Source: an uncultured cyanobacterium
GTDB taxonomy: Bacteria; Cyanobacteriota; Cyanobacteriia; Cyanobacteriales; CAWCAG01
Direction: 5' to 3'
Assembly: GCA_963793425.1 (NCBI GenBank)
Contig: CAWCAG010000009.1
Span: forward strand, 704,001 to 768,000
DNA length: 64,000 nucleotides
Position numbers: made by a program. The first letter of the stretch is position 1, and each line of letters begins with the position of its first letter. This document shows positions 3,001 to 6,000 of this stretch, piece after piece.

Positions 3001-6000
3001 AAGCCGCAAACTTAACTTGGAAGCAGGTTAATAAAGGGGTGACTAAGGCAGCAAAAGTATGGTATCAGGGGAAGGTAATGGGTAATAGGTAATAGGTAAT
3101 AGGTATGATCTCAAATCTGGTTCATAAAGTGCCTTGATAAAATCATGGCATCAAGTTTTCAAACCCTGCTCCCTACTCCCTACTCCCCACCCTAACCGAT
3201 AACCTTTGCAACCAAACCCAGGACTTAATATGACTATCTACTTCTATGGCCCTCGTGTCAAACCCTATGGTTGTTTTTCCAACTTTTCTCGTCATGGTTT
3301 TGAGTTAGACGGTGCTTGGTGGGCTACTAGTGAGCATTATTTTCAAGCACAAAAATTTATCAATACTGATGCAGAATGGGCTGAAAAAATTCGTGGGGCT
3401 AAAAGTCCTAAAGAAGCTGCTAAAATGGGACGCGATCGCAATTATCCTTTACGCAGTGATTGGGAAAAAGTTAAGGATGGCATTATGCAACGCGCTGTGT
3501 TGCAGAAGTTTTCTACCCACAATGATCTCCGTGAGATTCTTATTAATACAGGGGATGAGTTAATTGTGGAAAATGCTCCCGGAGATTACTACTGGGGTTG
3601 TGGCAAAGATGGCAGCGGCAAGAATAAGTTAGGAGAAATTCTCATGGCAGTACGAGAAACTTTGCAGAAGAATCAAGAGTCGTAAAGGTAATCGGGAAGA
3701 GTTGATAGTAACATCTTCCCAACTTCCAATAATTAAGGGGAGGTTGTCTAAAAGGCAAGACACCGTAGAAAAGTTTTAAAACGGTTCCCACAAGGACAAT
3801 CGGGTTTTCCTTAGTAAGGTCAAAAGTTGCATCGCGACATTCCCTGAATGGGCAAACGGGTAACAGGTTGCAGAGGCACTGAAAGGAATTAATAGTCCGA
3901 AATGGGGGTGGTTCCCATTTGCTGTAAAGGTAGTAAGGAAGCACTTTTCCTGAAAGTTACCGTCGGTTGATGCGGGTTCAAATCCCGTCCTCTCCATTTT
4001 TAAAATCGGGAGTTTTGGAGTGTTGCAAAGAGGAAAATTAAGGGAATGTAGCTCAATTTGGCAGAGCAACCGACTTTTAATCGGTTGGTTGTGGGTAACT
4101 CCTAACGGAGACGCTACGCGAACAAGTCCCACCATTCCCACTTTTTCATAAAGGGGAGAAAACTATTAAACATTGGCAAAAACAACATTTCGTATTCTTG
4201 CTCGGAACGAGGCAATGCGTTGCAGAAAAGTCATTGCTAAGGAAGAATGCGAAGGCGCGAGGCAGAATGTAGTCTGAGGTGAGACTATGATTTTGCTTTC
4301 GCGCCCTTTTTTTTGTTAACTTTCACAGTAAAACTAAGCACTGGTTTAGTTTTACCAAGGACTCCCAATCATAGTAAAAGCACTCCAATAATAAGGATGA
4401 TTCAAATTTTCATCCCCTAATGCAGCTAAATTTTCTGGTAAGGGAATTTCAATTTCTGGAGTAATCAGCTTGCCGTCTTGCAACTTAACTTCCCCTCTAA
4501 TCATCGCTAGTTGCGCTTGGCGCAGGGCTTCTGCTTTAATGGGGGCTACCTTGAGTTGCTCGTAGAGTGTAGCCATAAACCCTAAAGTACCTTCATCGCT
4601 TACTGTCCATAAGCTTCCCAGGGCTGATTTAACTCCGGCTTGGTTAGCTAACCCAGCAAAGCCTAATTCTGATTCCACACTGCCCACAGCAGTACGACAA
4701 GCACTTAATACCATCAACTCTACCGCAGGCTTATTTAAACCTAGTTGCCGCAATTGATCTAAACTAATTTTCTGGTCCCAAAATTGAATGTATGAATTAC
4801 TGGGTTTACCAGCATTAAATTCAGCATGGGTAGCGAGATGAACGATACCAAAAGGTTTATTAGCACGTTCTGATTTAAGATTTCCCGGAGTGAATTTGTC
4901 CCCCAGCAAAGATTTACCCGGCCATAAATTGTTAGCAATTGTCTTTATTTCTATAGGTACAGCAGGTAAATCTGGTAATTCAGCAAATGTCTCGGTTCCC
5001 ATGGCTAAGACTTCCATGTTTTTAACATCAACATAGCGAGTGTCAGTCAGAGAGAGACTCGGCATCAAACCTAAGCTATATTTTTCCAGGACAAACTGTT
5101 CACCATCGTGAAGCGCGGCAATGGGGATAGAACGTATCCCAGTATCTAGTATAAAAGCGAGGTTATTAATACCTTGTGCCTGCAACTCCTCTTCTAAGGG
5201 GGCAAGCAGCCATTGATATAGTTGTTGGGACGGGACTAGGTAAGCATTGGGACGGGAAGGATTAGTGATGGTGCGGCGAAAGGTTTTAGCAACTTGTTGT
5301 ACCTTGGCACGAGTTATGCCTCGTATCGGTTTGCGGAGGATTTTTCCTTCGGCGGTTAAGAGAACAAGTTCCAATTGATCATCTTCTTGGGGAGGAAATT
5401 TTAAGTTGTTAGACTTGCTTTGTTGTTTGTCCCCCTTATTTTCTGAAGGTGCAGCTAATTCGGCCGGGAAAAAGGCAGCGTAAATAAGGGCTGGTTTGAC
5501 TCCTGTTTCTCTGTTGATGCTGCGTAAGATATCTTTAGCTTCATCTAAACTAGTAATTTCGTTATCATCTTCTTCACCAAAGTAATTTTCAAAATCCTCA
5601 GTAAATTTCTCCTCTAATTGCTGAATGATGGGGTCAATTTGCAATTGGGGAACGGGTTGGTCAAAATTAACTTTTGGCAGAGGAGTTTCTTCGGGAAGAA
5701 TATCATCTGGAACAGGATCATCTACGGCTATGGTTGCTACATCAATGCTTACTGGTTGCTGAGTCGAAGAGACACCATCGCTAACACTGATGGTAAAACC
5801 ATTTACACTGCCTGTAGTTCCTGCTGGGGGTGTGTAAACTAAAGTATCTCCAGAAGAAATAACCGTTCCTGCTGTTGCCGTTACGCCGTTAACTGTGAGG
5901 ATGCCTGCATCAATTGATACGATAGTGATGGAGGTGAGGTTATCACTGTTCACATCCCCAGTAATTGGGTTTAAATCAGCAAAGGTGAAGGTAAAAGGTT

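Follow-up and report, generated by a model that had tools for sequence, protein, structure and literature searches.

A tRNA-like RNA of about 260 nt in cyanobacterial long tRNA arrays, and a dispersed repeat in the T loop of the neighbouring tRNA-Lys gene

The locus and the anatomy of the 260-nt RNA

The window analysed here is a stretch of 64,000 nt from a contig of an uncultured cyanobacterium, and all coordinates refer to it. Near its start, an island encodes on the + strand an RNA ligase with a tRNA_bind OB fold (1803-3092) and a NADAR protein (3206-3685), both recognized with Pfam, followed by the gene of a 260-nt tRNA-like RNA (3737..3996, +), delimited by its conservation block, its homologues and covariation, and by a tRNA-Lys(UUU) gene (4042..4140, +). 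From a reading of the sequence, the island transcript probably ends at a terminator (4254..4315, +; GGCGCGA...UCGCGCC, then a T run), which a consensus scan missed because the loop is too long. The genome-wide survey's note had described two RNAs of about 100 nt here, and both sequences were located as it claimed.

Across 22 loci, conservation sets in at GGGGAGGU and ends with CCUCUCCA, stopping sharply at A3996. The first of the two elements had been bounded at 3899-4000. Since the conserved block begins at 3737, that element is the 3' 40% of a longer RNA, of which we found 64 distinct full-length homologues. Their comparison shows that 3737-3996 encodes, on the + strand, one predicted structured RNA of about 260 nt on a class-II tRNA frame. 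The tRNA features present are a 7-bp acceptor, U8, A14, G18G19, a 5-bp T stem and a 7-nt loop of the TΨC type. The source genome holds one copy of the RNA, which is single-copy per genome, and therefore the large arm described below is not a repeat.

The acceptor stem is not the local one proposed earlier: its 3' strand CCUCUCC (3989-3995) pairs instead with GGGGAGG at the other end of the RNA (3737..3743, +), and G3739 opposite U3993 forms G3•U70. The 3' strand and the discriminator A3996 (3989..3996, +) are followed by UUUU, so that CCA is not encoded. All 7 pairs were kept in 39 of 39 aligned sequences. Among the 64 distinct homologues, G3 and U70 were kept without exception, A73 in 62, and both CCUCUCCA and an unaltered 5' strand GGGGAGG in 61 each; the sole compensatory event in the stem was G7>A / C66>U in one locus (L239). 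Because the whole stem is almost invariant at all positions, G3•U70 does not stand out by its constancy. Judged against the tRNA-Ser, tRNA-Ala and tmRNA of the source genome, the RNA carries the alanine identity set G1-C72, G2-C71, G3•U70, G4-C69 and A73. G3•U70 and A73 are described as the AlaRS keys in passages of PMC3968760.

The D arm (3746..3761, +) follows U8 (3744) and has a 3-bp stem (3746-3748 / 3759-3761) and a loop with A14, G18 and G19; U8, G10, A14 and G18, which are tRNA tertiary-type bases, were invariant in the alignment. Two of the three D-stem pairs were altered on both sides. The consensus of this stem in the homologues, GCC/GGC, is that of the source genome's tRNA-Ser genes, and the copy in the window reads GUC/GAC. 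At the position of the anticodon arm stands a hairpin with a 5-bp stem and a 14-nt A-rich loop (3762..3785, +), whose innermost pair was seen as U-G, U-A, G-C and C-G. The loop measures 14-17 nt among the homologues and is A-rich; a 7-nt anticodon loop and an anticodon were absent from the RNA and its homologues. The short hairpin that follows, UCC-CACAA-GGA (3786..3796, +), was found by RNAalifold and by covariation (1 of 3 pairs altered on both sides, 95.7% of cells paired) and may represent the short variable arm of the ancestor.

At the variable-arm position, the RNA extends into a giant multi-helix arm of about 170 nt (3797..3969, +). It is closed by a helix at 3797-3802 / 3964-3969, in which 5 of 6 pairs were altered on both sides, and continues through a replaceable hairpin domain (3804-3857, +) and a second helix (3859-3864 / 3956-3961, +; 4 of 6 pairs altered on both sides) into a highly conserved core (3865-3955, +) with four small hairpins (3885-3898, 3900-3920, 3921-3931 and 3937-3950). 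This core is the most conserved sequence of the RNA, unpaired stretches included. In L068, L109 and L187 the domain 3804-3857 is exchanged for a short hairpin, and in L068 and L109 the hairpin 3921-3931 is extended by an additional stem-loop; such swaps follow helix boundaries. The GGAA/UUCC hairpin that had been taken for a substitute of the anticodon loop does exist, as GGAAG/UUUCC at 3937-3950, but it lies inside the variable-arm domain. The T arm is as described before, with a 5-bp stem and the 7-nt loop UUCAAAU (3972..3988, +; GCGGG-UUCAAAU-CCCGU), and the loop reads UUCRANU in most of the 64 homologues.

Over the whole fold, 97.8% of 2623 cells were paired, a count that overstates the independent events because most homologues are Microcoleus kin. 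Both sides were altered in 20 of 68 pairs, compared to 2-6 when the partners were slid, and 0 of 500 shuffles matched the observed covariation value. RNAalifold, applied to 21 sequences, independently recovered the helices. Folded as a single sequence, the RNA was no stabler than its shuffles (z = -0.38 on the + strand and -0.56 on the - strand), so support for the fold comes from comparison alone. The strand is indicated by many invariant G•U pairs, which would be C·A if read on the opposite strand. A noisy all-against-all scan for column covariation established no pseudoknots; one noisy column pair, a candidate loop-loop pairing, would join the anticodon-position loop to the loop of the GGAAG hairpin (C-G 32, A-U 2, unpaired 3).

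Comparison of the homologues revealed no conserved reading frame. The sole recurrent open frame contains an in-loop UAG in several lineages and is interrupted by indels of 1 nt and 14 nt; with a UAG in a hairpin loop and indels that are not multiples of three, a tag-peptide frame was rejected. The RNA matched no Rfam family. Searched alone at permissive thresholds, it gave a weak tmRNA match and noise only, and the two weak scores reported earlier were reproduced. The tmRNA model RF00023 reached 18.2 bits (gathering cut-off 47) in a wrong local register, in which the internal GGGGUGG was aligned instead of the true 5' end. The YrlA model RF02553 reached 24.3 bits (cut-off 69) with a match spanning two genes, namely the T arm of the 260-nt RNA and the D arm of the next gene; passages of PMC4201824 report that the YrlA authors discarded the same tandem-tRNA artefact. 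The tRNA model RF00005 found no match in 3737-3996 even at E values up to 10 (cut-off 29 bits), and ARAGORN made no call there.

The 260-nt RNA as a fixed member of long tRNA arrays

The recurrence of the first element in other genomes had been noted before and was understated. Its sequence, the 3' part of the 260-nt RNA, was present at full length in 20 of 400 other sampled genomes of the order, plus one partial case, and the whole RNA was found in 62 of 84 pattern-matched species records, giving carriers in at least 62 species, and in five genomes from three families that do not belong to the order. A pattern of T arm and acceptor hit, among the matches listed, mostly unrelated tRNAs of other phyla, and its cyanobacterial loci were used. 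In the viral contigs scanned there were two chance matches, neither with the 260-nt RNA. Across orders, the RNA keeps about 80% identity over its 260 nt, while its flanks are unalignable.

Cyanobacterial long tRNA arrays are induced by translational stress and have been described as tRNA genes with linked protein genes. In all 11 loci with called tRNAs, the 260-nt RNA lies on the tRNA strand. It follows both tRNA-Ser genes in L306, L307 and L308, and tRNA-Ser(UGA) alone in L310 and L316. The RNA has a constant place in the long tRNA arrays of cyanobacteria, immediately behind tRNA-Ser(CGA) and tRNA-Ser(UGA), and the proposal that a new structured RNA travels with these arrays holds for the first element. 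Passages of two array papers (PMC8421152, PMC10272220) make no mention of such an RNA, and a literature search for tRNA-like or tmRNA-like RNAs in tRNA arrays returned nothing relevant.

The module composed of an LSU-fragment RNA, NADAR, the ligase, tRNA-His/Ser/Ser and the 260-nt RNA recurs in G301 (L308), and a 23S GTPase-centre fragment RNA belongs to it in both the source island and G301. NADAR lies upstream of the RNA in five loci of different lineages, where it is either adjacent or separated by tRNA genes or one ORF. The islands around the RNA encode RNA-repair and ADP-ribose enzymes, and one contains an additional EF-Tu gene. In most Microcoleus arrays, the RNA is flanked by tRNA genes only, and it has no constant protein neighbour.

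The tRNA-Lys(UUU) gene and its T-loop repeat

The second element is a tRNA-Lys(UUU) gene (4042..4140, +; anticodon 4076-4078) with an otherwise canonical cloverleaf. The reported score of 57.7 bits with the Rfam tRNA model (cut-off 29) and a 31-nt T-loop gap was found again, and the fold had a z-score of -3.55; ARAGORN made no call of this gene. The housekeeping tRNA-Lys(UUU) of the source genome lies elsewhere (C5:1255129). An insert of 26 nt (4097..4122, +), consisting of a CUCC-UAAC-GGAG hairpin, a CGC-UAC-GCG hairpin and AA, sits between T54 (4096) and C56 (4123), where it replaces T55, and the T loop is 32 nt long instead of the canonical 7.

The insert had been taken for a dedicated module, and this part of the earlier description did not hold. 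The close tRNA-Lys orthologues of L032-L034 have the empty site GTGGGT-TCGAGTCCCAC. At least 13 distinct array tRNAs, the one in the window included, have an insert at the same T-loop site and with the same tail, and its hairpins covary across the 13 cases. These T-loop copies are over-represented because the initial loci were picked by similarity to tRNA-Lys 4042-4140; a strict scan of 11 independently chosen array loci yielded only two clear inserts. Three genomes hold 10, 32 and 4 copies of the 13-mer ACGCTAYGCGAAC, of which 5, 1 and 1, respectively, lie within arrays; the reversed control occurs 0-2 times. Dispersed copies of the repeat were found in the source genome too (blastn-short), and the copies outside tRNA genes lie between inverted repeats. 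One homologue of the 260-nt RNA (L039 / G246) has the repeat in its T loop, and the 63 other distinct copies are without it.

By these comparisons, tRNA-Lys 4042-4140 is an ordinary array tRNA gene into which a small dispersed repeat was evidently inserted at the DNA level. An insertion into a tRNA-Lys gene had been named as the alternative in the earlier note, and empty-site orthologues and dispersed copies bear it out. The repeat, of about 25 nt, favours hairpin loops. Most of these are T loops, one is an anticodon loop (after U33), and others are hairpins outside tRNAs. Most likely, the insertion leaves a crippled or non-standard tRNA, which would be tolerated because array tRNAs are redundant. 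Insert-bearing tRNA-Lys genes are maintained in two genomes (G395 and G335), and this persistence could mean that the insert is tolerated or even used. One such use would be a protein-spliced mini-intron, cut from the tRNA-Lys RNA and its ends re-ligated by the RNA ligase of the island to leave a functional tRNA. The constant site, the covarying hairpins of the insert and the RNA ligases encoded in the islands agree with splicing, but there is no evident bulge-helix-bulge motif or known bacterial endonuclease for splicing. Moreover, the repeat occurs frequently beyond RNA genes, as fits mobility at the DNA level, and unbiased selection of arrays turned up few inserts. We regard splicing as quite improbable.

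The insert resembles the small dispersed repeats of cyanobacteria in being about 25 nt long, hairpin-forming, dispersed in many copies and apparently mobile, a likeness in general character. According to a citation in PMC3116915, such repeats were treated by Elhai et al. in 2008 (Genome Res 18:1484), a work outside our literature search on T-loop insertions in cyanobacterial tRNA genes, which returned nothing relevant. The repeated landing of so short an element at one T-loop position bears on target choice by very small mobile repeats. Genes of this kind escape ARAGORN, which makes them relevant to annotation as well.

Origin, possible function and comparison with known systems

The 260-nt RNA has much in common with class II tRNA-Ser. 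Their acceptor stems are equal at 13 of 14 bases and differ at position 3 alone, and they share a 3-bp GCC/GGC D stem, an extra arm between the anticodon and T arms, and the slot, beside two tRNA-Ser genes. All five tRNA-Ser genes of the source genome have GGAGAGG/CCUCUCC and G73. In contrast, the 260-nt RNA shows A3>G (giving G3•U70) and G73>A, has no anticodon loop, and its arm, built around a conserved multi-helix core, has about ten times the length. A duplicate of tRNA-Ser would probably be the origin of the RNA. Descent from tRNA-Ser is not proven, because the acceptor is also identical at 5 of 7 positions to that of tRNA-Ala(CGC) from the source genome.

In the mechanism we propose, RNase P and the enzymes of tRNA 3' processing would probably excise the RNA from the array transcript, and CCA would be added. 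Whether AlaRS then charges it is, in our estimate, an evenly balanced question. It is conceivable, if rather unlikely, that the alanine-charged, non-decoding RNA would engage EF-Tu and the ribosome under translational stress, by analogy with the tRNA-like domain of tmRNA; the exit of the big arm from the body would correspond to that of helix 2 in tmRNA, and the anticodon-position hairpin would take the place of SmpB. Without a tag frame, the RNA would be a competitor, a sensor or a rescue adaptor and not a tagging template. We assign a probability of roughly 0.6 to the main reading, that is, to the structural identity of the 260-nt RNA and the tRNA-Lys insert together with the direction of this functional interpretation. 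The boldest form of it is improbable: a second, independent design of the tmRNA type, in which a copy of tRNA-Ser took alanine identity, lost its anticodon and gained a 170-nt arm, and, charged with alanine and borne by EF-Tu, entered stalled or damaged ribosomes by means of its anticodon-position hairpin and free of SmpB, as an RNA for tag-less rescue, sensing or competition.

Other explanations start from the same features. The tRNA frame may serve only for excision and stability, as in engineered tRNA scaffolds, in which case the RNA would not be aminoacylated and the core of the arm would be the working part. Possible partners of this core are proteins of the island (the tRNA_bind RNA ligase, NADAR, Macro, PARG or Tpt1) and small ligands, for instance a derivative of ADP-ribose; alternatively, the core might be a decoy for an RNA-targeting toxin, like the neighbouring 23S-fragment RNA. 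We consider this doubtful but worth keeping in view. That conservation is strongest in the core, even where it is unpaired, speaks for it, as do the abundance of ADP-ribose and RNA-repair enzymes in the island, the 23S fragment RNA in the module of the source island and G301, and NADAR upstream in five loci. However, the exact alanine set, the frozen acceptor positions and A73 are left unexplained, and no protein gene is constantly adjacent, tRNA genes alone flanking the RNA in most Microcoleus arrays. Far less can be said for a Y RNA that would hold Ro60 (TROVE) with its long arm and, like YrlA, link it to a nuclease. In Cyanothece sp. SIO2G6 (L061), the RNA is followed about 570 nt downstream by a TROVE gene, and Y RNAs with tRNA-like modules in RNA-repair operons are described in PMC4201824 and PMC7790460. 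Yet TROVE was found in two of five carrier genomes, on other contigs, and within about 4 kb only in L061; it was not found in the source genome (98.6% complete) or in two of the four other carriers (G301 and G067). Together with the unpermuted topology and a YrlA score far below its cut-off in a match over two genes, this makes the Ro partnership suggested earlier very unlikely here; since the source genome is without Ro, the RNA would not be a Y RNA.

It is hardly credible that the RNA is a decaying pseudogene, a functionless copy of tRNA-Ser that junk or a mobile insertion has disrupted. Redundancy and acquired insertions are indeed seen among array tRNAs, and 3 of 26 Anabaena array tRNAs are undetectable pseudogenes according to passages of PMC8421152. 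Decay is at odds, however, with an identity of about 80% that the 260 nt keep between orders next to unalignable flanks, with compensatory changes in 20 pairs and swaps that respect helix boundaries, and with a single copy per genome. The survey's note had seen two separate non-decoding tRNA mimics of about 100 nt, one with a hairpin in place of the anticodon and the other with a purpose-built T-loop module. A local (centroid) fold of 3900-4001 does allow an acceptor-like stem and a T arm, and the weak tmRNA and YrlA matches point the same way. Against this, that fold is not above its shuffles (z = -1.57), and conservation runs 160 nt further upstream to a perfect partner of the 3' strand. The proposed acceptor strand AAAUGGG belongs to a covarying internal hairpin, its partner CCAUUU enters the unconserved 3' flank, and the supposed T-loop module is one copy of a dispersed repeat, whose site is empty in orthologues. 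We give this interpretation little chance. What stands is that both elements are tRNA-derived, probably non-standard, and part of an island of tRNA-array and RNA-repair genes; the anatomy of the first and the emphasis on the second had to change.

Returning to the RNA as a probable derivative of tRNA-Ser with tmRNA-like traits, we compared it with known systems. It shares with tmRNA (SsrA; RF00023) the tRNA-like ends with G3•U70 and A73, a canonical T arm, a tie to translational stress, and a large body that exits at the position of a long variable arm; passages of PMC3968760 state that helix 2 of tmRNA mimics such an arm. Unlike tmRNA, it has no tag frame, possesses a true D stem, carries a hairpin at the anticodon position where tmRNA uses SmpB, and measures 260 nt compared to 395 nt for the tmRNA of the source genome. 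The RNA is not a tmRNA despite its tmRNA topology, and probably arose independently of it, via tRNA-Ser.

YrlA-type Y RNAs (RF02553) are likewise tRNA-like non-coding RNAs in RNA-repair neighbourhoods; for some of them, passages of PMC4201824 report cleavage by RNase P and CCA addition. They are circularly permuted, with the T arm, a closed acceptor hairpin and the D arm between Ro-binding ends, and lie at most 4 kb from Ro60, whereas the ends of the 260-nt RNA form the acceptor stem. The CDS-less tmRNA-like RNAs of mycobacteriophage DS6A, some plastids and mitochondria have an alanine-type tRNA-like domain without a message, as does the 260-nt RNA. In the case of DS6A, the source element has many tRNA genes. 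These RNAs are about 65 nt long and comprise the tRNA-like domain only, to which the 260-nt RNA adds the 170-nt arm and the anticodon-position hairpin. Passages of PMC11915505 report that the DS6A form inhibits the host tmRNA. Next to these systems, the 260-nt RNA adds a non-decoding component with a fixed slot to the stress-induced tRNA-array system. As a natural example of the conversion of a tRNA into a tmRNA-like form, it would bear on the question of how tmRNA originated.

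Extent and fold of a 260-nt tRNA-like RNA

The stretch starts in the interior of a small island of the tRNA-array type, encoded on the + strand, with a promoter-like site and the genes for tRNA-Cys, Tyr, Ser and Met just upstream. A Macro-domain gene (98–616), an aspartyl-protease-like gene (718–1161), tRNA-Gly and tRNA-Arg (1196–1367), a 23S rRNA fragment RNA (1535–1611; 61 bits to Rfam LSU positions 1080–1157), the gene of an RNA ligase with a tRNA_bind OB fold (1803–3092, +) and NADAR (3206–3685, +) follow. The two RNA elements lie between NADAR and a terminator-like hairpin with a T run (about 4254–4315), and the next gene, encoding a CHAT domain, is on the opposite strand.

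The genome-wide survey's note had described the first element as a separate RNA of about 100 nt starting at 3899. When 401 genomes of the order were searched with positions 3895–4145, full-length matches to the first ~105 bases turned up in 20 other genomes and a partial match in one more; these genomes belong to seven families other than the window's own. The alignment of the matched loci took in 330 nt of sequence upstream of each. The conserved block opens at 3737 with GGGGAGGU, not at 3899, and closes sharply at CCUCUCCA (3996), and both flanks are unalignable. By this alignment, the element described is just the tail end of an RNA of 260 nt (3737–3996, +). The acceptor-like stem AAAUGGG/CCAUUU proposed for it had matched bases of a covarying internal hairpin to the unconserved 3′ flank, while in the full block a 5′ GGGGAGG perfectly complements a 3′ CCUCUCC. 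Across all collected loci we found 64 distinct full-length copies: 61 start with GGGGAGG, 61 end with CCUCUCCA, all 64 have G3 and U70 (tRNA numbering), and 62 have A73. In one locus (L239), G7>A is paired with C66>U, a compensatory change spanning 250 nt. The RNA is single-copy in its own genome. Microcoleus sp. A003_D6 (L225) has two matches to the core pattern (401–418 and 878–895), 477 nt apart, one of them only partial by profile (model positions 1–214), which suggests either a tandem duplication or a second copy that is broken.

The fold given by RNAalifold for 21 sequences agrees with that from a helix list of our own, tallied over 39 distinct sequences. A 7-bp acceptor stem is followed by U8, a 3-bp D stem whose loop has A14, G18 and G19, a 5-bp hairpin at the anticodon position with an A-rich loop of 14–17 nt, a 3-bp hairpin, and a 6-bp long-range helix closing a domain of ~170 nt; two bases past this domain comes a canonical T arm. 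The domain itself comprises a hairpin sub-domain that is replaceable, another long-range helix of 6 bp, and a core of strong conservation that contains four small hairpins. Standard pairs occupy 97.8% of 2623 cells and 20 of the 68 pairs changed on both sides, in an alignment in which many sequences are Microcoleus kin. None of 500 shuffles matched any of five measures, and sliding the partners by 1–3 columns lowered pairing to 38.6–55.9% and left just 2–6 double-changed pairs. Most of the signal comes from the two long-range helices (5/6 and 4/6 pairs double-changed). Distant homologues vary as an RNA should: two Pseudanabaenaceae MAGs and one further genome (G656) have a short hairpin in place of the replaceable sub-domain, and in the Pseudanabaenaceae copies an extra stem-loop extends one core hairpin. 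The single sequence was no more stable thermodynamically than its shuffles (z = −0.38 on the + strand, −0.56 on the −), so the case for the fold is comparative only.

The invariant G•U pairs and the co-orientation with tRNAs, seen in all 11 loci with called tRNAs, place the RNA on the + strand. On the opposite strand, two mechanical ORFs (3642–3944 and 3776–4141, −; 100 and 121 aa) run across the RNA genes. We argue that they are probably not genes, because the homologues show helix covariation and indels of lengths not divisible by three.

A small repeat in the T loop of the neighbouring tRNA-Lys

The Rfam tRNA match of the second element (4042–4140, +; 57.7 bits, with a 31-nt T-loop gap) was reproduced, with no call by ARAGORN. 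The cloverleaf is intact and folds well (z = −3.55), and the anticodon is UUU. Between T54 and C56 its T loop is enlarged by 26 bases (4097–4122). In its nearest orthologues (L032–L034), 93–95% identical over the 5′ two-thirds, the T loop is plain, GTGGGT-TCGAGTCCCAC.

Sequence comparison assigns the insert to a small dispersed repeat, in which a short hairpin, variable and covarying, is followed by a second one (CGC-UAC-GCG or GGC-UUC-GCC) and AA; a typical copy reads TAT-hairpin-ACGCTACGCGAAC. In a strict scan, 13 distinct tRNA genes, the present one included, had it at precisely this T-loop site, after three rows from unrelated non-cyanobacterial sequences had been left out; some of the loci examined for the repeat were picked by similarity to this tRNA, so T loops are over-counted. 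Two loci (L025, L072) hold cases with variant tails. In 11 arrays chosen via the 260-nt RNA, the strict scan gave two clear cases among ~270 tRNA genes. In one case, present in L013 (295–394) and L018 (around 316, −), the repeat stands right after U33 in the anticodon loop of an apparent tRNA-Arg(ACG), and in one genome (G246) it stands in the T loop of the 260-nt RNA itself. The T-loop and anticodon-loop targets alike are 7-nt U-turn loops on 5-bp stems. A 13-mer of the repeat occurred 10, 32 and 4 times in three genomes (reversed control, 0–2), with 5, 1 and 1 of these copies in arrays. Outside tRNAs, the copies are usually framed by short inverted repeats, which places them in hairpin loops. 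Of roughly a dozen partial copies in the own genome, the present one alone is in a tRNA. At L051 (around 4790, −; G019:C18), whose array holds 5 of that genome's 10 core copies, the repeat is bracketed by a duplicated tRNA 3′ part, CAAATCCCACCTCAGCC on both sides, which may be a footprint of the insertion mode.

We read the insert as a DNA-level insertion of a hairpin-loop-seeking mini-repeat into a redundant array tRNA, which is probably impaired by it. Removal of the insert at the RNA level is a long shot. The earlier observation stands in part, as does its interpretation: the arrays do carry a tRNA-like RNA, larger than reported, and the proposal of a second tRNA mimic gives way to the alternative that the note itself had named against it, a tRNA-Lys gene hit by an insertion. 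In our reading the gene is an ordinary array tRNA, and what hit it is a mobile mini-repeat that recurs at this T-loop position.

Distribution and gene company

A class-level search with the whole RNA found it in 9 of 401 genomes, the own one included; five lie outside the order, in three families. An 18-nt core pattern, scanned over 185,579 species genomes, matched 84 places, and 62 of these carry the RNA by profile search. The window's own copy lacks the pattern, so 62 is a lower bound. The other 22 are at chance level (by our estimate, ~35 random matches). The species records with the RNA, among those checked, are cyanobacteria: many Microcoleus, several Leptolyngbya, and Lyngbya, Lusitaniella, Aerosakkonema, Aliterella, Kamptonema, Adonisia, Argonema, Coleofasciculaceae, Pseudanabaenaceae and Cyanothece. 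The viral contigs scanned yielded no copy.

Within 8 kb of the RNA in 11 further loci, scanning 94 of 156 listed ORFs, we found as recurrent proteins NADAR, Macro, microbial PARG, Tpt1/KptA, OB-fold RNA ligases, 2H phosphoesterase, HNH, PIN, HEPN-AbiU2 and GNAT; none was a constant neighbour. The PARG, Macro, Tpt1/KptA and 2H genes (L308:3740–4579, 9879–10391 and 10444–10986; L315:11209–12156; L313:5715–6254) would form, with NADAR and the RNA ligases, a coherent kit for ADP-ribose removal and RNA 2′-phosphate repair. One genome (G301) has the window's module of 23S-fragment RNA, NADAR, ligase, tRNA-His/Ser/Ser and the 260-nt RNA. The free-standing fragment resembles the 23S GTPase-associated centre (1450–1611 here and L308:5106–5188 in G301; LSU model about 1077–1160; 61 and 54.5 bits), is preceded in the window by a sarcin-ricin-loop-like AGUACGAGAGGA, and shares a module with NADAR, the ligase and the 260-nt RNA in both islands. 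A complete extra EF-Tu gene (GTP_EFTU plus domains 2 and 3; L315:5329–6555, genome G225) lies in an array island ~1.5 kb from the RNA, beside GNAT, BrnA-antitoxin-like and PIN genes. An IS605-type OrfB/TnpB gene (Cas12f1-like TNB domain; L306:9162–10346) lies directly downstream of an array and adjoins a HEPN-AbiU2 gene. ARAGORN called array tRNAs with the unusual anticodons UUA, AAA, AUU and AUA (L306:11182, L307:11635, L315:1067, L316:11981); the first, called 'tRNA-Stop', would read UAA. They are possible suppressors or pseudogenes.

Relation to tRNA-Ser, tRNA-Ala and tmRNA

All five tRNA-Ser genes of the own genome have the acceptor GGAGAGG/CCUCUCC, G73 and the D stem GCC/GGC. At the acceptor end the 260-nt RNA differs from them in two bases only, A3>G, which creates G3•U70, and G73>A. 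Its first four acceptor pairs and discriminator are those of the four tRNA-Ala genes and of the own tmRNA, and G3•U70 and A73 are described as keys for recognition by AlaRS in PMC3968760. In three larger array loci (L306–L308) the RNA has a fixed slot after Ala, His, Ser(CGA) and Ser(UGA); in L310 and L316, ARAGORN called Ser(UGA) alone ahead of it. Because of the acceptor and D-stem match, the alanine-type keys and the slot after two tRNA-Ser genes, we read the RNA as a duplicated class-II tRNA-Ser in which the alanine identity set would have been gained, the anticodon loop lost and the variable region enlarged into a functional domain.

No Rfam 15 family reached threshold on the RNA; the weak matches reported earlier recurred for tmRNA (18.2 bits at 3905–3999) and YrlA (24.3 bits at 3950–4083). 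We rejected a tmRNA: the match stays below the cut-off of 47 bits and has only the wrong internal register, the genome has a normal tmRNA (C5:1592455–1592849, tag ANNIVPFARKTTAVAVA), and no frame is conserved. The sole recurrent open frame is interrupted in several lineages by a UAG that lies in a hairpin loop, and indels of 1 and 14 nt shift it. We also rejected a YrlA Y RNA. That match joins the T arm of the RNA to the D arm of the next gene, exactly the type of tandem-tRNA artefact that the YrlA authors discarded, according to PMC4201824; the topology is not permuted, and no TROVE gene was found in the own genome or in two complete carrier genomes. Two of five carrier genomes have TROVE on other contigs, and in one MAG (L061, Cyanothece sp. 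SIO2G6) the gene does follow the RNA. Between the two lies a 119-nt Rfam tRNA match (1132–1250, −; 48.3 bits) with a long anticodon/variable-region insert. It may be another expanded tRNA-like RNA, and perhaps that island's Y RNA.

Comparative analysis establishes the gene with its ends and fold, the tRNA-like frame and the alanine-type acceptor. It also gives good support for a new RNA family, resident in cyanobacterial long tRNA arrays: alanine-type, class-II-tRNA-like, 260 nt long and with a giant conserved arm. The main-text portions consulted of the array papers (PMC8421152, PMC10272220) mention neither tRNA-like or tmRNA-like RNAs nor T-loop inserts, and a wider literature search gave nothing relevant. 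The tRNA processing enzymes would excise the RNA, and CCA would then be added (probability about 0.7). The chances that it would be alanylated are roughly even. It is doubtful that it would go on to engage EF-Tu and the ribosome under translational stress, like the tRNA domain of tmRNA. Somewhat less doubtful, and still tentative, is the main rival, by which the tRNA frame is a mere scaffold for processing and stability and the core of the arm would bind a protein of the island or a ligand, or would serve as a decoy. A competitor role without a tag has precedent, since tmRNA-like RNAs of that kind exist, and the form of phage DS6A is reported to inhibit the host tmRNA (PMC11915505).

In tmRNA, helix 2 mimics a long variable arm, as stated in PMC3968760. 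The 260-nt RNA has the same topology as tmRNA and would have reached it from a different start.
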